A DNA stretch of 64,000 nt from positions 256,001 to 320,000 of the forward strand of contig CAVQEQ010000001.1 in assembly GCA_963711565.1 (NCBI GenBank), in the 5' to 3' direction. Below, in pieces: positions 3,228 to 15,658 of the stretch. A model generated the notes under the pieces. It had not been told where the DNA came from. It saw only the letters and a program-made list of their open reading frames with translations, and did not search any database. Every line of letters begins with the position of its first letter. Within the stretch, counting starts at the first letter, position 1. The translations under genes and the position numbers were made by a program. Source of the stretch: an uncultured delta proteobacterium. Lineage in GTDB: Bacteria; Desulfobacterota; Binatia; Binatales; Binataceae.

Positions 3228-4160
3228 CTACTTCGCGAATGCTTTCCTGAGCGCCGCGGCGGACTCGTCGATTGCGAGCTTGCCCTTGTCGAGCACCTCG
3301 TACATCGAAAAGAATCCGTGGATCATTCCTTCGTAGCGCGTAACGGTCACGGGCACGCCGGCGGCGCGCAGCTTCTCGCCGTAGGTCTCGCCCTCATCGC
3401 GCAGCGGATCGAAATCCGCCGTTATGATCAGCGCGGGCGGCAGCCCCTTGAAGCTCTTCGCCAACGCCGGCGCGATACGCGGGTCTTTGCGATCCGCCGG
3501 GCTGCGCAGGTAATGCTTCCAGAAATAAACTATGTCGTCCTTGGTCAGAAAGTAGTCGGTGAAGGTTTTGTGCGAGTAGGTGTCGAGCTCCGCCTCCGTC
3601 GCGGGGTAGATGAGCAGCTGGAACGCGATTTTCGGGCCGCCCGCGTCGCGCGCGAGCTGTGAAATCACCGCCGACAGGTTACCGCCCGCGCTGTCACCAC
3701 CGACAGCCAACCGGTTCGCATCTGCGTTCAGCTCTTTAGCGTGCGCGGCGACCCACTTGGTCGCGGCAAAGCAATCTTCGACGCCGGCTGGAAATTTATT
3801 CTCGGGCGCAAGCCGGTAATCGACCGACACCGTCACGCATCCGGCCTTGTTAGTGAGCGCGCGGCACGGCCCGTCGTGAGTATCGAGGTCCATAATCACC
3901 CATCCACCGCCGTGGAAAAATACCAACACCGGAAACGGGCCCGTGCCCTCGGGAGTGTAGATGCGAATCGGAATCTCGCCGGCAGGGCCGGGAATTTTGC
4001 GATCCTCGACTTTGGCGATTTTCTCAGCCCGCTCCGGCGGCACTCTGAACATATTGGCGGTCAAGCGGCGCGCTTCGGCCGGCTCCAGCGTATGCAGCTT
4101 GGGGCCGGGCGCGGCGGCGATTTGATCCATCAGGACTTTCACTTGCGGGTCGAGCGGCAT
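3228..4160 (-). CDS. Alpha/beta hydrolase, HSL-family esterase
   Basis: HGGGW, GDSAGG, DPLRDEG, HGF motifs. Confidence 0.92.
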   Translation of the reverse strand: MPLDPQVKVLMDQIAAAPGPKLHTLEPAEARRLTANMFRVPPERAEKIAKVEDRKIPGPAGEIPIRIYTPEGTGPFPVLVFFHGGGWVIMDLDTHDGPCRALTNKAGCVTVSVDYRLAPENKFPAGVEDCFAATKWVAAHAKELNADANRLAVGGDSAGGNLSAVISQLARDAGGPKIAFQLLIYPATEAELDTYSHKTFTDYFLTKDDIVYFWKHYLRSPADRKDPRIAPALAKSFKGLPPALIITADFDPLRDEGETYGEKLRAAGVPVTVTRYEGMIHGFFSMYEVLDKGKLAIDESAAALRKAFAK

Positions 4161-4221
4161 GGTTTTTCCTCCGGGTGATCTTTCTTAGACCGGAACGCCC
4201 GCTGGCGACAAGCGCACCGCA

Positions 4222-5067
4222 CTACGGCGCGAAACTGGATAGCAGACTGATCGCGCCGGGGTGTCCGTCGATTCTAATGCCGCGCGCAATGGCTCCCTCG
4301 CGCTCGAGTCGGCACGCCGCACCCTCGACCAATGCCGCGTCGATCCCCAGCAGCCGCGCGATCGCACGCTCACTGCCGAAGGCCGCCGTCTCGAAATATT
4401 TCGTGACGATCGCGTACGCTGCCTGCTTCCGCGAGAGTTTGCGCGCATCCGCAATCGCGTCGGGCCATCGATGCTCCATCGTGTCCCACACGTAGCTGAA
4501 CGGGTCGGCGCGCTCGTCAACTTTGAGCGCAAGAAATTTTTCCTGCAGCTCCGCCATCGCGCGGTCGAACACCGCGCGCTTCGACGCTTGCGCGTAACCG
4601 CTTGATAGCTTGAGCACGCGCGTCTCAGCCGCGCCGCGCTTGGAGAGTGCGTCCATCACCAGTTTGCCGCAATGCGACAAGCCGCCGCGGAGGTACAGCT
4701 TGCGATAGCCGCCCGGCTCGATGCGCAGCCTGAGGAACGCTCCCAGCATCTTGCGTGCGATGAAGCTCGGGCGTCGCGCGATCACCTTGCCGTAATAGAC
4801 CGCGCGGCGCTGCGGCAATGAGTCCTTGATTCGCCAGGTCATCCCGATCGCGTAGTCATGCTGAATATGCTCGGGCATCGAAGGTTCGCGCGTTCCCGCA
4901 ATCGCCTCGCGCAGGCACGGCACTCCCATCCCGGACGTGAACCCGGTACAGAATCCAACCTCTTCGATAAACTTGAGCGCGCTCTTCTCGCCGGTCACGC
5001 GCCGCGACGCGACGCGCCTGAAATGATGGTCGCGATGCCGCTCGAGCGCGTCGAGAATATTGCTCAT
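4222..5067 (-). CDS. Hypothetical protein, possibly AlkZ-related winged-helix family
   Basis: Long ORF with coding-like composition; resemblance (FIEEVGFC, WRIKD, VYYGK) judged by eye. Confidence 0.5.
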   Translation of the reverse strand: MSNILDALERHRDHHFRRVASRRVTGEKSALKFIEEVGFCTGFTSGMGVPCLREAIAGTREPSMPEHIQHDYAIGMTWRIKDSLPQRRAVYYGKVIARRPSFIARKMLGAFLRLRIEPGGYRKLYLRGGLSHCGKLVMDALSKRGAAETRVLKLSSGYAQASKRAVFDRAMAELQEKFLALKVDERADPFSYVWDTMEHRWPDAIADARKLSRKQAAYAIVTKYFETAAFGSERAIARLLGIDAALVEGAACRLEREGAIARGIRIDGHPGAISLLSSFAP

Positions 5068-5129
5068 GCGGCGCGATGGTAGCTTGAGTACCGAGAGCAA
5101 AGTAGCGTCCTCGCAACTTTGCGATTGAC

Positions 5130-5167
5130 ACTGGGTGCAGGGGTCACCCCTGCCGCCCCGCGCGCAG
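5130..5167 (+). repeat. Repeat family A, short subtype
   Basis: ACTGGGTGCAGGGGTCACCCCTGCCGCC..CGCGCAG; matches reverse complement of 29306-29344. Confidence 0.8.
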
Positions 5168-5196
5168 CGGTTCTGGATCTCCTCCAGGCGCCCCGC

Positions 5197-6519
5197 TCAT
5201 CCCGGAATTCGCTCGACACTTTCCGCAAAGATTCGCCGGTAGTTGGTCTTCACCGCGAGTCCGCGCGTGATTCCTTCCAGCCCGACCAGTGCGCGAATCA
5301 GAAACACGCTGTGCGCGGGCGATTTGTACAGCTGGTTTTGAAGCGCGAGCTCTCCGACCTTGGCCGCCTTGCCGACCGTGTCGTAGTCGCGTGGATCGAC
5401 CGCGTAATTGACCCTCATCGGCTCGAACAGGATGTGAATGATTTTGACCATCGGCGCCGCGTCCTGACTGCGATCGAGATAGCCGAGCTTGACCATCGCC
5501 GCCGCCAGCGATTTGTCGTCGCCGCTCAGAATCGCGCGCGCGACTTGCAGGTTGGCCTTGCGCACCGGTTCGGGGAAGCGCCGTATCGAGCCGAAGTCGA
5601 GGACGCCAAGCCGCGGATGATGGCTCACGAGGTAGTTGCCCGGATGAAAATCGGTGTGCAGCATCCCGAATTCGAGAATCTGCCGCCACGCGAACTCGTG
5701 CATCTTCCTCGTGACCCATTCGCGCAGCTCGGCATCGACCTCCGACCCCATCACGTCCGCCAGCGGATAGCCGTCGACGTACGTCATCGTCAGCACGCGC
5801 TGCGAACTCAACTCCTTGACGTAGCGCGGAATCATGATCTCGCCGTCCGCGCCGAGACGCCGGCCGAACTCGACGATGTTGCGCGCCTCGTTCACGTAGT
5901 CGAGCTCCTCGCGCAGCCGCTGCTCGAGTTCCCTGTACACGGCGCCGGTGTCGATCTGTTGGCGCATCACGTCATGACCGAGCGCCTGCAAGGTCCGCAG
6001 CAGCAGCTTGAGATTCTGCAAGTCCTGCTCGACGGTATCCTCGACGCCCGGATACTGGATCTTCACCGCGACGTCGAGACCATCACGCGTGACCGCGCGA
6101 TGCACCTGGCCGAGCGACGCGGCGGCAAACGCGGTCTGATCGAAACTCCTGAAGATCGCCTCGGGCCGCTTGCCGATCTCCTTGCGAATCTGCTCCGAAA
6201 TAGTCGCGTAGCTCATCGGCGGCACGCTCGATTGCGTCGCGCGCAGCACGTCGAGCGCCTCGCCCGGCAGCAGATCCTTACGAATCGAGAGCATCTGAAT
6301 AAGCTTCATGAACGCGCCGCGAAGCTGCTTCGAGCTCTCGACAATTCGCTGCGCGTTGCGGATGTGAGTCTCGAGCAGGTCGCGCTCGCGCGCGGGCGCG
6401 CTCAGAAAAGGCCGCCGCAATTGATTCCACAGGTAGCTGGAGCCCACCTGCGACGCGAGCTCGCCCATCTTGATCGCGCGGCGCGCGCGCCCGCTGGTGA
6501 TTGACGTGCGTTTCGCCAT
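5197..6519 (-). CDS. ABC1/UbiB/AarF atypical kinase
   Basis: [34 protein letters not shown]. Confidence 0.92.
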
Positions 6520-7289
6520 CAGCGTCCGTCGCGCTCGATTCCGACCCGGTTGATCAACGTGGCCGCCAGCGCCGCGCCGAAACCATTGTCGATATTGACG
6601 ACGGTCACGCCGCTCGCGCACGAATTCAGCATCCCCAGCAGCGCGGCCAGACCGCCCATCGACGCGCCGTAACCGACGCTGGTCGGCACGGCGATCACAG
6701 GCTTGTCGACCAGGCCCGCGACCACCGACGGCAGCGCGCCTTCCATCCCCGCGACGACGATTAGCACGCTAGCTTTGCGAATCGTTTCGAGGTTCGCTGT
6801 GAGGCGATGAATTCCCGCGACGCCGACGTCGTAGACGCGCGCCACGCGATTTCCGAACAGCTCGGCGCACAGCGCCGCTTCCTCGGCGACCGGAATGTCG
6901 GAAGTGCCCGCGCTCAGCACCATCACGACGCCCTGCCCCGACGGCTTGACGCGCTCCTTCACGACCATGCCGATGCGTGCGTCGGGACGATACTCCAGCG
7001 CGCGGATTTTGCGTTTGACGATGCGCGCCTTGTCCGCATCGAGCCGCGTGATTATCAGATTCGTCCCCGACGCAATGACGCGCAGTCCGATCGCCACGAG
7101 CTGATCGGCAGTTTTACCTTCGCCGAAAATCACTTCGGGAATCCCGCGGCGGACGCTCCGGTGATTGTCGAGCTTGGCAAAGCCCAGGTCTTCGAACGGC
7201 AGCTCGCGGATATGCTTGAACCCAGCGCCCGGAGTCATCTTGCCCTCGGCGACGCCGTCGAGGATTTCGCGGATTCGCTTTTCAGTCAT
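6519..7289 (-). CDS. larB: Nickel-pincer cofactor biosynthesis protein LarB
   Basis: PEVIFGEGK, AGTSD, DVGVAG, AGMEGALPS, VPTSVGYG, NIDNGFGAA. Confidence 0.93.
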   Translation of the reverse strand: MTEKRIREILDGVAEGKMTPGAGFKHIRELPFEDLGFAKLDNHRSVRRGIPEVIFGEGKTADQLVAIGLRVIASGTNLIITRLDADKARIVKRKIRALEYRPDARIGMVVKERVKPSGQGVVMVLSAGTSDIPVAEEAALCAELFGNRVARVYDVGVAGIHRLTANLETIRKASVLIVVAGMEGALPSVVAGLVDKPVIAVPTSVGYGASMGGLAALLGMLNSCASGVTVVNIDNGFGAALAATLINRVGIERDGR

Positions 7290-8575
7290 CGCCGTTTGAG
7301 AAGTTCCGGGCGGATCGGATGCGCAAGTGTCAATATCAGTTCGCGCACAGCGCGCGCGTCGCTGCGCGTGACGGTGATCGTCAATTCGCCCTCGATTAAT
7401 TTTTCGCCGGGTTTGGGAATATGCCCGAGTCGTTCGACCACCAATCCGCCGATGGTAGCATACTCGTCGGCCTCCGAAAGCTTGAGGCCGAAGCGCTCGT
7501 TCAGCTCCGTAATCGGTGCGCGTCCGACAATCGACAGCACCCGCGGGCTGACCACTTTGGCCAACTCCTCGCGAAGGTCGTGTTCATCCTCGATATCGCC
7601 GACGATCTCTTCGATCAGATCTTCCAGCGTCAGAATTCCCGCCGAGCCGCCATACTCATCGACGACCACGGCCAGATTTTCTCCGGTGCGCTGCATCGCG
7701 ACCAGCGCCTCGTCGAGCGGCATCGATTCGGGAAAATAGCTGACCGGCCGCATGATGTCGCTCACCGGGCGGCTGAGATCGGGCGCCTGCAAAAGATCGA
7801 AGACATGAACGACGCCGACTATGTCCGTGATTCGACGCCGGAAGACCGGGATGCGGCTGAAGCCTTCGCGGCGGACAGTTTCGATCGCGGCTGCCAGCGA
7901 GGTTTCCTCCGGCACCGCATCGACGCCCACCAGCGGCACCATCGCCTTGCGCGCCTCGGCCTGCGAGAAGCGGAAGATGCGGCTGATCATCAACTGCTCG
8001 GCGGGCAGGATGTCGTCGTACGACGGCGCGGAGGCGTCGCTCGGTCGTCGCCGCATCAAGCGCGCCAGGTCCTCACGGCTCAAGAATACGCTCTCGGCAT
8101 CGGCCGGCACTCCTGCCAATCGACGCAACAATCTACTGAGAACTGTCTCCGCATAGAGCAGCGGCGCGAGCACCGTCGCAAGGAAACGCAACGGCCGCGC
8201 GGCGAACAGCGCGAACGCGTGCGGTCTCATGAGCGTCAGCAGCTTCGGTATCGACTCGCCCAGCACCAGCGTGATGGGAGTCAGAATAAACGGTGCGAGA
8301 TAAACCAGGTGCGGCTTATTGTTGCGGTGCAAGTAGCTGGTGAGCACGACCGCCGCGACCACGGTGGCGAGGTTGGTTCCGGTGAGAGTGAGCGCCAGCA
8401 AGCGGTCGCGATTCGTCAGCAGTTCGCCCAGCACTCGCGAGCGTGCGTGTCCCCCTTCGCTCCCGGCGCGAACCTTCAGTTCGTCGGCTGAAACCAGCGC
8501 GATCTCCGACGCCGCGAAAAACGCCTGCACCACGAGGCATCCGGCCAGCGCGGCGATCAGCCAGATCATCGTCAT
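7286..8575 (-). CDS. Hemolysin/CNNM family protein (DUF21-CBS-CorC)
   Basis: SEIAL, GESIPK, FSRIPV, VVDEYGG, EDLIEEIVGDIEDE. Confidence 0.9.
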   Translation of the reverse strand: MTMIWLIAALAGCLVVQAFFAASEIALVSADELKVRAGSEGGHARSRVLGELLTNRDRLLALTLTGTNLATVVAAVVLTSYLHRNNKPHLVYLAPFILTPITLVLGESIPKLLTLMRPHAFALFAARPLRFLATVLAPLLYAETVLSRLLRRLAGVPADAESVFLSREDLARLMRRRPSDASAPSYDDILPAEQLMISRIFRFSQAEARKAMVPLVGVDAVPEETSLAAAIETVRREGFSRIPVFRRRITDIVGVVHVFDLLQAPDLSRPVSDIMRPVSYFPESMPLDEALVAMQRTGENLAVVVDEYGGSAGILTLEDLIEEIVGDIEDEHDLREELAKVVSPRVLSIVGRAPITELNERFGLKLSEADEYATIGGLVVERLGHIPKPGEKLIEGELTITVTRSDARAVRELILTLAHPIRPELLKRR

Positions 8576-9786
8576 CGATGGAGCCTCACCAGCTCGACCG
8601 CCGCGCCGCGCACGCGCTCGACGGTCGCCTCGAATTCCCCGAGCCTCAATTTTTCTCCCGCGCGCGGTACGCGCCCGAGCCTGCGCAGGATCAGGCTGCT
8701 GAGCGTCTTGCCGCCGCCGTAAACTTCGATGACCCGCGCCGGCGCGAGCGCGTCGGCGAGCTTGCCCAACCCGACTGCGCCGGAGGCTTGCCATTCGTCG
8801 TCGGAAATTTTCGTGAGCTCGGGAACCTCGCTGTCGAACTCGTCGCGAATCTCGCCGAATAATTCTTCGAGCAGGTCTTCGAGCGTCACCAGGCCAAGCA
8901 GACGGCCGTACTCGTTGACCACGAGCGCGATCTGGAAGCGGCCGCGGCGCATCTCGTCAAATAAATCGGCGAGCAGCTTGCCCGGCGGGACAAAATACGC
9001 CGGCCGCACCAGCCGCTCGACGCGCGGCGGCGATGGCTCCAGGCGCCGCGCCGCTAGGTCCTTGGCGTGCAGAATCCCGACGATATTGTCCTGGCTATGG
9101 CGATAGACCGGCACGCGCGAGAAACTTTCGTGCGCGATTTCCGCCACCAGCTGCGCCACCGGCATCTCGATGTCGAGCGAGAAGATCCGGTCCCGCGGTG
9201 TCATCACCTCGGACGCGCGCCGCGCACCAAAGTCGAACACGCGATGAATCATCGCGCGCTCGGCGGGTTCCACCTGTCCCTGGTTTTCGCCGAGCCTGAG
9301 CAGCGTTTTGAACTCCGCTTCGGAAACCGGGCCGGGACTCGGCGCCTGCTCGAGCGGCGTGAAATGGCGCGCGAACGGATGGACCACGTCGGCTAGCACC
9401 GCCAGCGGCCGCGCCGTGAGCCACGCCAGCGCGGACGGAAATCCAAGCGCAAACGTCTTCGGCGTAATGTCGCAGAACAAGAGTACGACCACCAACATCG
9501 CCGGCGCCGCGACGATCGGCCCCCATTTGTCGCCGAGCCACGCCAGCAGAATGATCGTCACGAGGCAGTCGGCAAAAATGTTGCACGCTTCGTTCAGCCC
9601 GATGATCACGATCAACGATTCGAGCGGCCGGCGCATCAGGCGGTCGAGCGCGCGCTGCACCGAGAGGCTCATCTGCTCGCGCGTATGCTCCAGCCGCGCC
9701 ATCGAGAACAGCGCGGTCTCGGACGCCGCCAACGTGGCGCTCAGCACGATGAGGATCAGGACCACGAACGACAACATGGACATCAT
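8572..9786 (-). CDS. Hemolysin/CNNM family protein (DUF21-CBS-CorC)
   Basis: [38 protein letters not shown]. Confidence 0.9.
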
Positions 9787-9795
9787 CGATTCTAT

Positions 9796-10800
9796 CTAGC
9801 CGCGCGACCGCAGCTGATCCCATCCTGCGGCAATCGGCGCGTTGGCACCAATCACGTTCAGCCGCTTGCCCCGAACGATCCGACCGATTCGCCGCACTGC
9901 AACGCGCAACCGACGCGACAGTTCGGCTTCGCTGTGACCGGGCCTCGCGCAGAAGATCAGTTCGTAGTCCTCGCCGCCGGTGAGCGCATGCACCATGTCC
10001 CCGCCCATCAGCGTGCGGTACGCCGGCGAGACCGGGATTCGCGGCGCGTCGATTTCAGCGCCGACTCCGCTTTGTTCGAGGATGTGCCCGAGGTCCTGCA
10101 TGAGTCCGTCGCTAACGTCGATTGCGGCGGGCGCGGGCCGGAGCGCCGCGAGCCGTTGCCCCGCGTACAGCCGCGCATGCGGACTCAGAAATCGCTCGAC
10201 GAGATATTTTTCTGACGCGCGATTCTTTTTCGCATCACCTCGAGTCCTCAGCTTGCCCGCCAGTATCCGCCAGCCCAGCGCTGCGTCGCCGAGCGTGCCG
10301 GTCACGAAGATTTCGTCGCCCGGCCGCGCCGCATCGCGCCGCATCACGCCGCGCCCGGCTTCGCCCAGGATCGCGATCGTGATCGAGAGCTCCCGCGCGC
10401 GGGTAATATTGCCGCCCACGATATCAATCGAGGCTTCGCGCGCCGCATCGCGCAGCCCCGAGTAAATTCGCTCGAGCGTCCGCGACGTAATTCCTTCGCG
10501 CACGCCGAGGTTCACGACGCAGGCCGTCGGCCGCCCACCCATCGCCGCGATGTCGCTCAAATTAACCGCGAGCGCGCGCGCACCGAGCGCTTCCGGCGTT
10601 CCCCATCGCAAATCGAAGTGAACCTTCTCGACGATGCTGTCGATAGTAAACAGCACCTGCCCGCGCGGCCGCGAGACAATCGCGCAATCGTCACCGGCGC
10701 CGAGAATCGTGCGGCGGCTGAGGCTGATTCCCGCGCTGAGTCGCGCGATCAGTTCGAATTCGCTGGGGAGTTTGCCGGACGCGCCAGAGCGTTTCCTCAC
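9796..10800 (-). CDS. thiL: Thiamine-monophosphate kinase
   Basis: EFELI, GDDCA, NLSDIAAMGG, DVSDGL, GGEDYEL. Confidence 0.95.
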   Translation of the reverse strand: MRKRSGASGKLPSEFELIARLSAGISLSRRTILGAGDDCAIVSRPRGQVLFTIDSIVEKVHFDLRWGTPEALGARALAVNLSDIAAMGGRPTACVVNLGVREGITSRTLERIYSGLRDAAREASIDIVGGNITRARELSITIAILGEAGRGVMRRDAARPGDEIFVTGTLGDAALGWRILAGKLRTRGDAKKNRASEKYLVERFLSPHARLYAGQRLAALRPAPAAIDVSDGLMQDLGHILEQSGVGAEIDAPRIPVSPAYRTLMGGDMVHALTGGEDYELIFCARPGHSEAELSRRLRVAVRRIGRIVRGKRLNVIGANAPIAAGWDQLRSRG

Positions 10801-12107
10801 GGCGTGCGCGCTTTCGGCGGTTGTGCCACGATCGGGAATTCCGCAACGAGAATCAGTCCCCGCCTGCCGGCCGCGAATCGCGCCCCCGTCCGTCCGCCAG
10901 CGGCCTCAGCCATCGCGCGTCCGATATACAGGCCGAGTCCGCGCGCGGCGGTGTGATTGCCGTTGCGGTTCGGGCGCTCGAACAGCGCATCGAGTTGCTC
11001 CTGCGAAAGAGTCGGGCCGGTGTCAGTGACCTCGATTGCGATCATCTCGTTTCGCACCCCGGCCCGCAGCGTAACTTCCCCGGTCGCCGTCCTTCCGATC
11101 GAATACGCGAGCATGTTTCTCACGATCCTCTGGAAATGCCGGCCATCGAGTGTGCACGGCGGCAGCCGCGAGATCTCGACCCGCAGATTCAGACGCCGGC
11201 GCCGCGCCTGCAGCCCGCAATCTTCCGCGACCTCGTTCAGCAGTTGATTCGGATCCAGCTCGACCGGCGCCGCGACGATGTCCTCATCCTGCGCCTCGTA
11301 GTAGTCCAGCACGTTGCTGACCACCAGGTCCATGTTCCACGCGGTCGATCCGATTCGCCCGAGCAGGTCCGCGCGCTCTTTGGCACTGATGTCCTCTTCT
11401 TCGAGCAGGTTCACATAGCCGCTCAGCGCCGCGACCGGGCTGCGGATGTCATGTGCCATCGTCGCGATTTGCGTCTGCCGAAACCGCGCCGCTTCCTCCA
11501 GGTCCCGCACCTGTTTCCTGAGACGCCGGCGATATCGCTCGATGAAGACCGACGTGTATTGCGCGAAGATCACCGCCGCGGCAAGCCCCATCCAGCGGTA
11601 CATGCCGTAGGGCGTTTCGATCGGCACGAAATATTCGCCTGCCGCGTAGCCCAGCACCGCTGTGAAAGCCATTAAAAACTGCCAGCCCGTGCCCCAGCTC
11701 ACGAACGCCGCGGTTGCCAGTGGGCACAGCATGATCGCGATGAAGCGCGACTCGGGGTCTCCCGTCTCCCCGCTGATCAGGATGAAGGTCGCAATCAGGA
11801 ACAGGTTGTAGAGCAGGATCCAGAATTTCCAATAACGCTTGAACGCGTCCGTCCATGACAGGCCGAAAAACAGGCAGGTCGCGGCCAGGATCAACCAGTG
11901 CGGCCACATGCCCGGAGCCTGCTTGCCGAACATGTGCTGGTCGTAGGCGAGGTACCCCAGCATGAGGAAGATTCCGAGCGCACCGCCGAGCTTCAGGACC
12001 CGCAGCGATTCCTCGTCATCCTCGGTCCAGCGGAACCCCGCAGTCGCACGGCCGCTCCCGGAATGTGTCAGTCCGGATGCGCCGTTGTATTTGCTGCTCT
12101 CCGCCAA
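10797..12107 (-). CDS. Membrane-bound histidine kinase with degenerate ATPase boxes
   Basis: Several TM helices; H-box AHDIRSP; N-box reads NMLAYSIGRT, G1 DTGPT, G2 ARGLGL. Confidence 0.8.
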   Translation of the reverse strand: MAESSKYNGASGLTHSGSGRATAGFRWTEDDEESLRVLKLGGALGIFLMLGYLAYDQHMFGKQAPGMWPHWLILAATCLFFGLSWTDAFKRYWKFWILLYNLFLIATFILISGETGDPESRFIAIMLCPLATAAFVSWGTGWQFLMAFTAVLGYAAGEYFVPIETPYGMYRWMGLAAAVIFAQYTSVFIERYRRRLRKQVRDLEEAARFRQTQIATMAHDIRSPVAALSGYVNLLEEEDISAKERADLLGRIGSTAWNMDLVVSNVLDYYEAQDEDIVAAPVELDPNQLLNEVAEDCGLQARRRRLNLRVEISRLPPCTLDGRHFQRIVRNMLAYSIGRTATGEVTLRAGVRNEMIAIEVTDTGPTLSQEQLDALFERPNRNGNHTAARGLGLYIGRAMAEAAGGRTGARFAAGRRGLILVAEFPIVAQPPKARTP

Positions 12108-12162: not shown

Positions 12163-13362
12163 TTAGCGCCGCGTTTCATCAAGCGCCTTTTTCATCGCGC
12201 TCAATGCAAAATCCACCTCGTCCGGCACGATCGTCAGCACCGGCGCAAGCCGGACGACGTTATCCGCGTTCAGCGTCCAGTTAACGATTACCCCGCGCGC
12301 CAAAGTCGCCGCGACAAACCGATGCGCCACCGCCGCGTCGCGAAATTCGATACCCACGATCATCCCGAGCCCACGCACCGCCGCGATTTCCGGCGCGCGC
12401 ATCGCCAGCAGGCGGCGCACGATCTCCTGGCCCATCGTCGCCGCGCGCTCGCACAAGCGCTCGCGCACGATCACGTTCAGAGCTGCAAGACCGGCCGCGC
12501 ACGAAAGCGGGTGCCCGCCGAAGGTGGTGATGTGTCCAAGCGGCGGATCGTGCGAAAGCGTGCCAAGCAGCTCGTTACGGCTGCATAACGCGCCCAGCGG
12601 CAAACCACCGCCGAGTGCCTTGGCCATCACGACGATGTCCGGCACGACGCCGAAATGCTCGAGCGCGAACATCTTGCCGGTGCGGCCGAAGCCGGTCAGA
12701 ACTTCGTCGAAAATGAGCGTCGCGCCTGCGCGATCGCATTGCTCACGCAGCGCACGGATGAAACCGGCCTCCGGGACGCGCACGCCGCCTTCAGCCTGCA
12801 CCGGCTCGACGACCACCGCCGCGATGGTCGAGTCGATTTTATCGAGCGCGCTTTTGTCGTCGAATAGCAGATGTCGCACCGGTCCGGGCAGGACGCCGAA
12901 CGGCTCGCGCATCGCGCGATTTCCGCACAGCGCGAGCGCGCCCATCGTGTCACCGTGATATGCGCCGTCAAACGCCACGAAGCCCGCGCGTCCGGTAAAC
13001 TTGCGCGCCGCCTTCAGCGCGCATTCGATCGCTTCCGCACCACTGTTCGTGAAATAGACGCGCTCGAGCGGCCGCGGCAGGATCTCGACCAGCCGCCGCG
13101 CCAGCATCACCTGGCTCTCGATCACGTACTCGCCGTAGACCATGACGTGCAGATGGCGTCGCGCCTGCGCTGCAATCGCCTCGAGCACTTCGGGATTCCC
13201 ATGGCCAAGCGCCGACACTCCAATCCCCGCGATAAAATCGAGATAGCGCCGCCCGTCCGACGCGATCAGCCACGAACCTTCGGCACGAGAGATCTCCAGA
13301 CCGATCGGAGCGTCGGAAGTCTGCGCCAGGTTCTGCCGGAACAGTTCGCCGAGTTCGCTCAT
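12163..13362 (-). CDS. Class-III PLP aminotransferase (ArgD-like)
   Basis: NSGAEA, YHGDT, EPVQAEGG, DEVLTGFGRTG, AKALGGG, TTFGG. Confidence 0.92.
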   Translation of the reverse strand: MSELGELFRQNLAQTSDAPIGLEISRAEGSWLIASDGRRYLDFIAGIGVSALGHGNPEVLEAIAAQARRHLHVMVYGEYVIESQVMLARRLVEILPRPLERVYFTNSGAEAIECALKAARKFTGRAGFVAFDGAYHGDTMGALALCGNRAMREPFGVLPGPVRHLLFDDKSALDKIDSTIAAVVVEPVQAEGGVRVPEAGFIRALREQCDRAGATLIFDEVLTGFGRTGKMFALEHFGVVPDIVVMAKALGGGLPLGALCSRNELLGTLSHDPPLGHITTFGGHPLSCAAGLAALNVIVRERLCERAATMGQEIVRRLLAMRAPEIAAVRGLGMIVGIEFRDAAVAHRFVAATLARGVIVNWTLNADNVVRLAPVLTIVPDEVDFALSAMKKALDETRR

Positions 13363-14558
13363 CGCGACCCCACCATCAAATCGAGGAACTTGCCCCCAGC
13401 GTGGCGCCAATCAAGCGGCGGCGATTGCATTTCGCCGGGCGCGCACACGTACGGTATCCCCATCGCCCGTGCCGCGATTTCGCAATCCTCGCCGACGACA
13501 GCCATCGCTTCGATCTGTCCCGAGACGCCCGCGATGCAAGCGCGAAATTCAGCGAGATCGCGCACTCCGGTCACGTGCACAGTCCTGAACCCCGGCGAGA
13601 CCATGAATGAATCGGGACGCGGCTCGAAAACCACCGTCCATTCAAGTCCGCGACCCTCGAACAACTCGACCGGCTCGCCCGCAATCGCACGCCACCGCGC
13701 GCGCTCCCGCACTCCGCGTATTTCGGCAGCATCGCGCAACGGGATGCGCGCCGGCGGCATCGATTCGCCGATACGTTCGAGCGCTCGCGACGTTCGGATT
13801 GCCAGCTCGCGCGCCGCGGCGCCTTCAGCACTCACGACAAACACGTGATGGAGCGACAGGCAGCCGAGTTGTTCGAACAATACGATATCGCGCGCGAGCA
13901 AGTCGGCGACCTCGTCGATTCGCGACGGAGCGATCGCGCCCCGCTCAATCAACGCGCCACTAACCCTGCTGGCGAACCCGATCACTTTGGGCGATTGCAA
14001 CGACTCGATCGTCGCGTCGTCGCCGTACGCGACCACTCGCTCGCATTTCGCAATTAATGCCGCAGTCAGGTCGGTGCGCGCGCGGCTCCAGTTGAGGACC
14101 TCGATACGCGCGCCAACCTCTCGATCGATCTCGGCCAGCGTGCGCGCAAATTCCGCGAAAAATATCGGCTCGGCCGATGCGGTTTTGATCAGCACTCGCG
14201 CGCCCCCAATCAGCGCGATCGCAATCTCATGGATTCCTGCGCCGGCGACGTTGCCGGCGGCAATAAATCCAATCGTCTTTGGCCCGCCAACAGTGGGGCG
14301 GGCCGCCGTGCCCGCCCTCGCCTTCAGCGCGTCGCTGCTGAACGGTTTCAGCAACGCGTCGATCGAGTTCTCGAGCATCGCTACGGAATAGCCCGCCGAC
14401 TGCGCGATTGCCGCGATCGCCTCGCGCCGGCGCGCGTAATCGCGACTCCGCCAGAGCTCGAACGTCCGTGCCAATGCATCGGCCATTTGCTCGCCGCTCG
14501 GGCCTGCGCTTTCCGCTTTGTGCACCTGCGCCGCGCCGGCGATGGACGTCGCACTCAT
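13359..14558 (-). CDS. LuxC-like acyl-CoA/acyl-protein reductase
   Basis: AAGNV, AYGDDATI, DIVLFEQLGCLS catalytic Cys, PGEMQSPPLDWRH tail. Confidence 0.82.
   Translation of the reverse strand: MSATSIAGAAQVHKAESAGPSGEQMADALARTFELWRSRDYARRREAIAAIAQSAGYSVAMLENSIDALLKPFSSDALKARAGTAARPTVGGPKTIGFIAAGNVAGAGIHEIAIALIGGARVLIKTASAEPIFFAEFARTLAEIDREVGARIEVLNWSRARTDLTAALIAKCERVVAYGDDATIESLQSPKVIGFASRVSGALIERGAIAPSRIDEVADLLARDIVLFEQLGCLSLHHVFVVSAEGAAARELAIRTSRALERIGESMPPARIPLRDAAEIRGVRERARWRAIAGEPVELFEGRGLEWTVVFEPRPDSFMVSPGFRTVHVTGVRDLAEFRACIAGVSGQIEAMAVVGEDCEIAARAMGIPYVCAPGEMQSPPLDWRHAGGKFLDLMVGSR
14293..14316 (+). repeat. REP-like 24-mer GTGGGGCGGGCCGCCGTGCCCGCC inside luxC-like CDS
   Basis: Identical to 47325-47348 and to the reverse complement of 35336-35359. 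Confidence 0.85.
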
Positions 14559-15658
14559 GGCAAATGCTCCGACGCTTCAGTCGCGGAGAATTGCCCTATC
14601 CCCAGTGCGCATCCACGAGCTTCTCCTGCCGCCCTGCCGAGCACGCGAACCCGTCCACCTTTGACGAAGCCCAGGTCTTCCGTCATGACGGCCGACACCG
14701 AGCCGACGTTGGCCAGATCAAAAAACGTAAGCAGCCCGATCTCCCCATCCGGCATCGGCCGCAACGTGACCGGATCCCGCGCCGTCACGCGCAGCCACGG
14801 GGGCGGAATCTTGAAGCGCTCTTCCGAGTCGGATCCGCCGGGGCAGTTGAACAACGTCGCGTCATAGAGCTGCGAGCACAATTCCGTCATCCCGTATTCG
14901 TTGATAACCGTCGCCGGCGAGATCGACAGCCATTCGCCTGCCAGCGCGAGCACTTCCAAGGCGTGCATCGGCACCGCCTGCCCCTTCGCTCCGCCGGTGT
15001 CCATCATGCGCGAACCAGCCGCGAGCCGAAGTTTCACGCCGCGACTGCGCAACTCGGAAAACAACGCCGCAAACGCAGCCGTCGTCCCCAACAGGCAAAC
15101 AGGCTCGCGACGTGCCTCGCATTCGGCAAGAAACGCGGTCGCCGCCGCCACATCGACCCGTTCGCGTGAGGCTGCCGCCAGATGCGTGCGCGTCGCGAAT
15201 TCTTCGATGCACCATGTGATCATCGCCGACAGCGACGACTCCGGCATCGCGTCCGCCGTCGGATGCATCGCGAGCATCGCCATTCTGCGAGCATCGGGGA
15301 ACAGCATTGTGCGCAGATGAGCGAGTGCCGACGCGCGATAAATCTCGGGCCGCGCAACAACGTGACGTCCGCGTCGCCCCCGCCCCTGCGTCGTCCCGCT
15401 CGTGAGAAAAACCGCCGCATCGGGCGATAGCGATGTGCCGTCAATCGCAAGGTCGGCGTACTTGAACGCGACATTGCTGACCGCCGGAACCTCCTCAACG
15501 CTACGAACCCCGTCATGCTCGACGCCGCGCCCTTTGCAGTAACGCCGGTACGCGCCAACTGTGTCAAATTGATGGCGAAAGACCGCCAATGCGAGCCGCT
15601 CGAACGACTCAGGCTCGGGCCTGTGGATAAACGTGAGAACCTGCTCGTAGATGGACAT
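14555..15658 (-). CDS. LuxE-like acyl-protein synthetase (ANL family)
   Basis: FLTSGTT, MDTGGAKG, EYGMTELCSQ, DLAN, TEDLG, LGR..EARGC. Confidence 0.85.
   Translation of the reverse strand: MSIYEQVLTFIHRPEPESFERLALAVFRHQFDTVGAYRRYCKGRGVEHDGVRSVEEVPAVSNVAFKYADLAIDGTSLSPDAAVFLTSGTTQGRGRRGRHVVARPEIYRASALAHLRTMLFPDARRMAMLAMHPTADAMPESSLSAMITWCIEEFATRTHLAAASRERVDVAAATAFLAECEARREPVCLLGTTAAFAALFSELRSRGVKLRLAAGSRMMDTGGAKGQAVPMHALEVLALAGEWLSISPATVINEYGMTELCSQLYDATLFNCPGGSDSEERFKIPPPWLRVTARDPVTLRPMPDGEIGLLTFFDLANVGSVSAVMTEDLGFVKGGRVRVLGRAAGEARGCALGIGQFSATEASEHLP

Follow-up and report, generated by a model that had tools for sequence, protein, structure and literature searches.

Within a window of 64,000 nucleotides from an uncultured member of the Binataceae (positions 256001-320000 of contig C1, CAVQEQ010000001.1, of genome G000, assembly GCA_963711565.1; 4.84 Mb, completeness 94.9%), three coupled genes encode a LuxE-like adenylating enzyme, a LuxC-like acyl-thioester reductase and a class-III aminotransferase (hereafter E, C and AT, together the trio; L and G numbers are locus and genome labels). 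Queuosine synthesis is taken to depend on QueC and QueF. From comparisons of genomes and sequences, we consider it likely that the trio would replace both, as an acid-to-amine pathway independent of acyl carrier protein (ACP) that leads from 7-carboxy-7-deazaguanine (CDG) to preQ1. The trio is real and conserved, and what is proposed here is a known pathway in a new form, built from known enzyme families.

Distribution of the trio and its linkage to queuosine genes

The inheritance of the three genes was followed in 251 evenly drawn genomes of the Bacteroidota (the phylum of G033; completeness filter 97), for which own profiles were used instead of Pfam LuxE and LuxC, as the latter were too weak in this phylum (18/44 and 32/50 genomes). 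The AT and E profiles matched the identical 110 genomes and were both without a match in the other 141, and C was found in 110/110 trio genomes, with weak C-like matches in only 6 others. Since the trio genes mostly lie on separate parts of the chromosome in Bacteroidota, this co-occurrence is a matter of function and does not stem from a shared cassette. QueC (TIGR00364 above cut-off) was present in none of the 110 trio genomes and in 124 of the remaining 141, leaving 17 with neither. QueE was matched in 87/110 trio genomes, 112/124 QueC genomes and 1/17 genomes with neither, so that 199 of the 200 QueE-matching genomes contained exactly one of the trio or QueC. The search for QueF covered 65 selected genomes, comprising 47 with the trio (39 from the sample and 8 from outside it, namely Binatia, Nitrospirota-, KSB1- and Eisenbacteria-labelled genomes and others), 16 with QueC and 2 with neither; strong matches were obtained in 0/47, 16/16 and 0/2, respectively.

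Three trio genomes of the sample contained QueC matches below the cut-off, which are devoid of most canonical motifs. These genes (L219:4848-5486, L220:4466-5089, L221:4572-5183) have PfkB-kinase, OGG or AAA-ATPase genes as neighbours; judging by this setting, they resemble defence modules and could draw on CDG of the host.

Gene neighbourhoods connect the trio to the same pathway. The orders queD-queE-E-C (L223), queD..E-C (L226), queE-E (L224), queD-x-E (L225 and L120) and queG-AT-E-C (L128 and L140) were identified, and in L081 queE is the third gene after the trio (E-C-AT-x-x-queE). The QueD genes adjoining E in other trio genomes are of the CxxxHGH type. G000 itself contains folE, queE, tgt, queA and queG together with all four GUN tRNAs; Tgt and QueA scored above their cut-offs, QueE reached 284 against 300, and FolE and QueG were recognized solely from motifs. 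Its Tgt carries C158 and V233, residues shared with enzymes that use preQ1 (comparison drawn from PMC3660597). QueF was not found in this genome, nor was a canonical QueC/QueF route, and the trio is unrelated to either enzyme. Where QueC and QueF are both missing, only the step from CDG to preQ1 is left unfilled, and an adenylation, a reduction and a transamination are exactly what this step calls for.

The enzymes, their predicted chemistry and the locus

In the proposed route, E would use ATP to adenylate the carboxylate of CDG, the product of QueE, and the resulting CDG-AMP would yield a thioester on C350; this chemistry is borrowed from LuxE, and the substrate is suggested by the genomic evidence. 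The acyl group would then move to C233 of C, where reduction by NAD(P)H, as in LuxC, would release 7-formyl-7-deazaguanine, which the pyridoxal phosphate (PLP)-dependent AT is predicted to convert to preQ1. Tgt would insert preQ1 into tRNA, and QueA and QueG would finish queuosine. Translational coupling, as well as the fusions described below, would hold the reactive aldehyde between neighbouring enzymes.

The S87-G88 loop, K225, R342 and C350 of E are invariant in 23/23 aligned relatives, and the last three align with K238, R355 and C364 of LuxE, of which K238 and R355 are reported to serve adenylation and C364 to bear the acyl group (PMC9157457). In C, G102-N103 and G232-C233 are invariant in 26/26 alignment rows, with C233 aligning with the one catalytic cysteine described for LuxC in the same report. 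By these alignments, the residues of a LuxE/LuxC-type thioester reductase (K225, R342, C350 and C233) are all kept. Both proteins score far below the NCBIfam equivalog cut-offs (62.4 bits against 550 for LuxE and 48.2 bits against 750 for LuxC). AT is a class-III PLP aminotransferase by its Pfam score above the cut-off, its DE motif (D219, E220) and its PLP lysine (K248), all three residues being invariant; HVMVYGEY (72-79), K248 and W362 are shared by 31/31 rows. It falls below all 25 NCBIfam cut-offs shown, including that of argD, and forms a distinct subfamily, the members of which reach 480-640 bits on the subfamily profile compared to 357 for the ArgD of this genome and no more than 365 for the nearest solved relatives (putrescine aminotransferase as the best match, and acetylornithine aminotransferases). 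Taken together, the trio enzymes look intact at the sequence level.

An AlphaFold model of E (pLDDT 83.8) has PaaK aryl-acid ligases as its best structural match, followed by two adenylating enzymes, one for aminohydroxybenzoate and one for a phenazine acid, a similarity that faintly hints at a small ring acid as substrate. Combined with a sister clade of E and C that is found behind thiamine pyrophosphate (TPP) riboswitches (see below), this fold suggests that small ring acids may be the substrates. A homologue search with the LuxE-like profile returned mostly unnamed matches; the named ones belong to Bacteroidota, and no functional name was among them.

An earlier note on this DNA, made from the sequence alone, had described three co-oriented genes joined by ATGA overlaps, and both junctions were recovered exactly (Table 1). 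It had also proposed a survey of whether these genes stay together, in which the linkage turned out to be conserved and not due to chance. Centred on AT, we kept the best 80 of 585 aminotransferase loci, 27 of them Binataceae-like and 53 other; the closest AT relatives among these 80 carry the labels Ca. Binatus or Binataceae. C lies upstream of AT in 25/27 Binataceae-like loci, with L006 lacking upstream DNA and L022 being a real exception, and E likewise lies upstream in 22/27, three more loci stopping at a contig edge. The full trio occurs in 8/53 other loci, the record labels of which include Nitrospiria, Nitrospirota and Ca. Zhuqueibacter. A ninth, L032, has C and AT together and E approximately 7 kb away, and in the remaining 44/53 neither E nor C was found within up to 6 kb of AT. 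In that ninth locus, from an Eisenbacteria-labelled genome (L032:370-5911 and G004:C3:886955), E is separated from C-AT by a lantibiotic-dehydratase pair and a methyltransferase. Of 80 metagenome loci retrieved around E, C was found in 56 and a class-III aminotransferase in 27, in the orders E-C-AT and AT-E-C. Clustering of the neighbours did not reveal a further gene shared by the trio loci. In L004, L013 and L028, E, C or AT is split over frames, probably through assembly frameshifts, and a gene for a YfhL-type 4Fe-4S dicluster ferredoxin lies near the luxC-like gene in 12 of the 16 Bacteroidota luxC loci fetched (L082-L098).

Fusions extend this picture. E and C share one open frame in L023, L024, L027, L123 and L124, as do C and AT in L148, and the E-C fusions may be read as one-chain, carrier-free acid reductases. 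In these five proteins, the acyl-carrying cysteine motif, which is C-terminal in free LuxE, starts the internal linker. Moreover, a second class-III aminotransferase subfamily occupies the AT slot beside E and C in 6 full-length loci, before E in L161, L173, L176 and L181 and after C in L182 and L188, and is spread over two distinct branches of the E tree. As this subfamily, which scores 236-278 bits on the main AT profile and lacks HVMVYGEY, fills the same slot, an amination step appears to be what is needed.

Table 1. Coordinates of the trio and its junctions within the window.
Feature	Position	Strand	Basis
LuxE-like adenylating, self-thioester-forming enzyme (predicted CDG activation), 367 aa	14555..15658	minus	Pfam LuxE PF04443, 57.5 bits, cut-off 24.9
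LuxC-like acyl-thioester reductase (predicted aldehyde release), 399 aa	13359..14558	minus	Pfam LuxC PF05893, 140.2 bits
Class-III PLP aminotransferase, distinct subfamily (predicted aldehyde to preQ1), 399 aa	12163..13362	minus	Aminotran_3 PF00202, 351 bits
ATGA stop/start overlap, luxE-like to luxC-like	14555..14558	minus	read from sequence
ATGA stop/start overlap, luxC-like to aminotransferase	13359..13362	minus	read from sequence

E and C are each single-copy in the genome. Downstream of the trio and on the same strand (window positions 3228-12107) lie a membrane histidine kinase gene, thiL (two genes downstream of the trio) and two tandem CNNM/CBS/CorC genes, as well as AIR-carboxylase-like, ABC1 kinase, AlkZ-related and esterase genes. 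This order, from the histidine kinase and thiL to the esterase, recurs in Binataceae-like loci and not beyond them. A scan of the locus for promoters and terminators gave results at chance level.

In the phylum of the window, AT was found in 4/121 genomes, all belonging to the window's class, and E in 10/121. The 6 E genes without AT all fall on another branch of the E tree, a quickly built tree without outgroup for which 6/27 Binataceae-like loci were kept, and two duplicate loci and matches shorter than 260 residues were dropped. Three of the 6 lie in clusters (L201:7420-17650, L202:3370-12846, L203:2910-12412) in which E-C pairs without an aminotransferase are surrounded by genes for homocitrate-synthase-like, aconitase, B12 radical SAM and flavin oxidoreductase proteins; from this gene content, they may represent a different acid-reduction pathway.

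Evidence against the CDG route and alternative readings

Several observations weigh against the assignment of the trio to the step from CDG to preQ1. No que genes were found among the scanned neighbours in the window, and no preQ1 riboswitch in the window or in the 40 loci scanned. QueE remained unmatched at an E-value of 1e-18 in 23/110 trio genomes; as the matches in trio genomes lie near the threshold (1e-18 to 1e-26) and 12/124 QueC genomes were missed too, this is probably a threshold effect. One trio genome, G178, gave a weak QueF-family match (29.9 bits), similar to the weak second matches in non-trio genomes. The sampled genomes are related and were drawn in taxonomic blocks, without a species tree, so that independent switches between QueC and the trio may be few, and the QueC test covered just 3 trio genomes from outside the Bacteroidota. 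The LuxE/LuxC family does not have a single function either, as thiamine-linked and biosynthetic-cluster branches exist.

G000 itself raises two further points against this assignment. Its only QueD-family (PTPS) protein (G000:C1:1245108; L217:3112-3615) has ExxHGH, reported as the folate-type PTPS-III motif as opposed to CxxxHGH of QueD (PMC5041015). Either this PTPS is promiscuous, or queD lies in the missing ~5% of the assembly, or the pathway is incomplete. In addition, the genome keeps a QueC-family gene (G000:C3:631600; L215:5571-6215; PF06508, 107 bits), which retains the zinc cysteines, R99 and the ATP-binding SGGxDS loop. Its score of 83.8 falls short of the QueC cut-off of 150.3. Five residues of the canonical signature (YxQxHxxE, VPxRN, YPDC and CY motifs) are lost, namely Y35, Q37, H39, C134 and Y189, and Y35 and Y189 are reported to be essential in Escherichia coli QueC (PMC13329287). 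We therefore read it as a probable paralogue, which, even if active, would yield only preQ0 without QueF. The gene is located upstream of a gene for a BMP-family binding protein.

These features of G000, together with profile and neighbourhood evidence that places the trio in the pathway without specifying its substrate, are what speaks for a role in 7-deazaguanine metabolism that involves another intermediate, tRNA-bound CDG, a different amine or a partnership with the divergent QueC-like protein. We regard such a variant as improbable, since the three reactions match the sole gap left by QueC and QueF, two other trio-bearing Binatia are without the QueC-like gene, and Tgt carries the usual preQ1 pocket residues.

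Slightly less probable still is a role like that of the tambjamine enzymes, in which the trio would supply a fatty amine to an amino-lipid or a natural product. The earlier note had named a fatty amine or amino-lipid as an example when proposing a compact module from acid via aldehyde to primary amine, and LuxE and LuxC are indeed reported to act on myristate (PMC9157457), while acid-aldehyde-amine routes to dodecylamine are described (10.1101/2025.08.11.669332). However, a fatty amine leaves the exclusion of QueC and QueF and the linkage to queD, queE and queG unexplained, no ACP or acyltransferase family was detected among the recurring neighbours scanned, and E and C lie far below the LuxE and LuxC equivalogs. 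The idea of the trio as one acid-to-amine unit is borne out, but both where the trio occurs and which genes surround it speak for CDG, a queuosine intermediate, in place of a fatty acid; the logic of the note was right and its substrate probably wrong. A literature search on the alkylamine lipids of Deinococcus and Thermus gave nothing that links them to trio genes.

Thiamine was the first lead on the substrate, taken from L139. There, E-C lies inside a thiM-thiE-thiD-thiG-thiH operon, and this locus and four others of the sister clade (L139:2363-14633, L154:97-5840, L151:1581-5099, L193:4133-10201 and L146:2084-4551) are all preceded by TPP riboswitches, two above and three just under the gathering score. 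On this reading, the trio would salvage an oxidised thiamine fragment by converting the pyrimidine acid PCA to the aldehyde and the aminomethyl-pyrimidine, from which TenA would form hydroxymethylpyrimidine (HMP). The position of thiL in the window, the presence of TenA-family genes in this genome (four matches) and the description of thiamine-derived acids as orphan products (PMC11223231) are in line with it. Nevertheless, this salvage is very unlikely for the trio and was rejected: TenA was found in only 5/110 trio genomes and ThiE in 19/62 tested, the window contains no TPP riboswitch (the single one of the genome is on another contig), the thiamine-clade loci contain no aminotransferase, and the E of the window belongs to a different, fully supported clade, outside the clade of LuxE/LuxC/SDR loci behind TPP riboswitches. 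As for the thiamine-clade loci themselves, an ABC importer is present in each of the four that are annotated, with a ThiY-like binding protein in two, and three of them also have a short-chain dehydrogenase/reductase (SDR) or zinc-dependent alcohol dehydrogenase. Their E-C pairs are candidates for the salvage of oxidised thiamine fragments by reduction, a route that has been predicted (PMC11223231).

Finally, AT could be an ArgD or polyamine transaminase beside a remnant of luxCE. Its best NCBIfam matches are acetylornithine transaminases and its best solved match is a putrescine aminotransferase; this explanation is nonetheless largely refuted. The genome has a separate argD within an argB-argD-argF-argG-argH run, which reaches 476.3 bits on TIGR00707 (cut-off 410.05) compared to 351.6 for AT. 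The arginine of the HGRT motif, which has a functional role in ArgD, is replaced by D, S, N or A in 31/31 AT rows, and the exact co-inheritance of AT and E in 251 genomes does not fit a remnant. The search for another argD had been proposed in the earlier note, and its view that the locus does not serve arginine synthesis holds.

EF-P modification was considered as a possible role, prompted by the Riemerella anatipestifer phenotype described below, and was set aside. Only one EF-P-like protein was found (G000:C4:235652-236245). The tip of its loop reads PGNW, and the residue at the position that is normally modified is neither Lys nor Arg.

Relation to known systems and significance

Returning to the proposed conversion of CDG to preQ1, the trio would share its substrate and product with QueC (preQ0 synthase) and QueF (nitrile reductase), including ATP activation of the carboxylate and reduction by NAD(P)H, and would rely on the same upstream (FolE, QueD, QueE) and downstream (Tgt, QueA, QueG) genes. 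Unlike these enzymes, which go via an amide and a nitrile, the trio, which is not homologous to them and excludes them in the genomes tested, would use a thioester and an aldehyde without preQ0, with nitrogen supplied by an amino donor through PLP.

Characterized homologs of C and E are the subunits of the LuxC-LuxE fatty acid reductase of Photobacterium phosphoreum (PDB 7XC6; PMC9157457), with profile E-values of 1.9e-35 and 3.9e-22. The catalytic Lys, Arg and both Cys are kept and the gene pair is coupled, whereas the LuxC is shorter here, an aminotransferase follows, the scores lie far below the equivalogs, and the substrate is probably a heteroaromatic acid. A search of the whole genome for the LuxD family (PF02273) gave zero matches, and none of the 57 luciferase-like (PF00296) matches of the 4.8-Mb genome lies inside the window, which agrees with the absence of luxA, luxB and luxD from the window described in the earlier note. 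The trio is therefore no lux operon (luxCDABE), having only homologues of its genes and neither luxD nor adjacent luxA or luxB, and bioluminescence, already discounted in that note, was rejected.

The sequence from acid via thioester and aldehyde to a primary amine formed by a PLP transaminase is shared with TamA/TamH and TabQ/TabE/TabA of tambjamine biosynthesis, reported to act with an acyl carrier protein on a C12 chain in a natural-product cluster (10.1101/2025.08.11.669332). In contrast, neither a carrier nor a natural-product cluster was found among the neighbours in the window or the recurring neighbours scanned, and the trio has a housekeeping-like distribution.

A luxE homologue of Riemerella anatipestifer, AS87_03730, probably belongs to the same LuxE-like family, to judge by the relatives stated in its description (PMC4772473). 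Its deletion is reported to slow growth and raise ribosomal-protein transcripts, which the authors, who named no substrate and assayed no tRNA, read as an effect on fatty-acid metabolism; the word "complement" is absent from their text. By analogy, the phenotype would also fit a translation defect and lends weak support to the queuosine assignment.

In the literature searched, mostly at the level of abstracts, we found no description of a LuxE, LuxC and aminotransferase route, or of any route through the aldehyde 7-formyl-7-deazaguanine, to preQ1, and the supplements of PMC10570037, PMC13329287 and PMC11223231 could bear on this. A survey of queuosine genes is reported to count a genome as a preQ1 salvager when it has tgt, queA and queG/H and lacks queF, and to place Bacteroidetes among the main "Q sinks" (PMC10570037). 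In our assessment it is rather probable that a nitrile-free de novo route to preQ1 operates in most Bacteroidia- and Balneola-type Bacteroidota, in Binatia, Nitrospirota, KSB1 and others, that many supposed preQ1 scavengers are producers, and that the LuxE/LuxC family is at its root a carrier-free heteroaromatic-acid reductase, with luminescence and thiamine salvage as offshoots. If the proposed route is correct, salvager assignments and maps of queuine suppliers in soils, waters and hosts would need to be redone, with 110 of the 251 sampled Bacteroidota genomes shifting from sink to source. It would also explain why queE is retained in trio genomes, assign a function to three widespread misnamed families ("acyl transferase," "acyl-CoA reductase" and ArgD-like aminotransferase), and add a new pathway intermediate as well as a carrier-free reductase for heteroaromatic acids.

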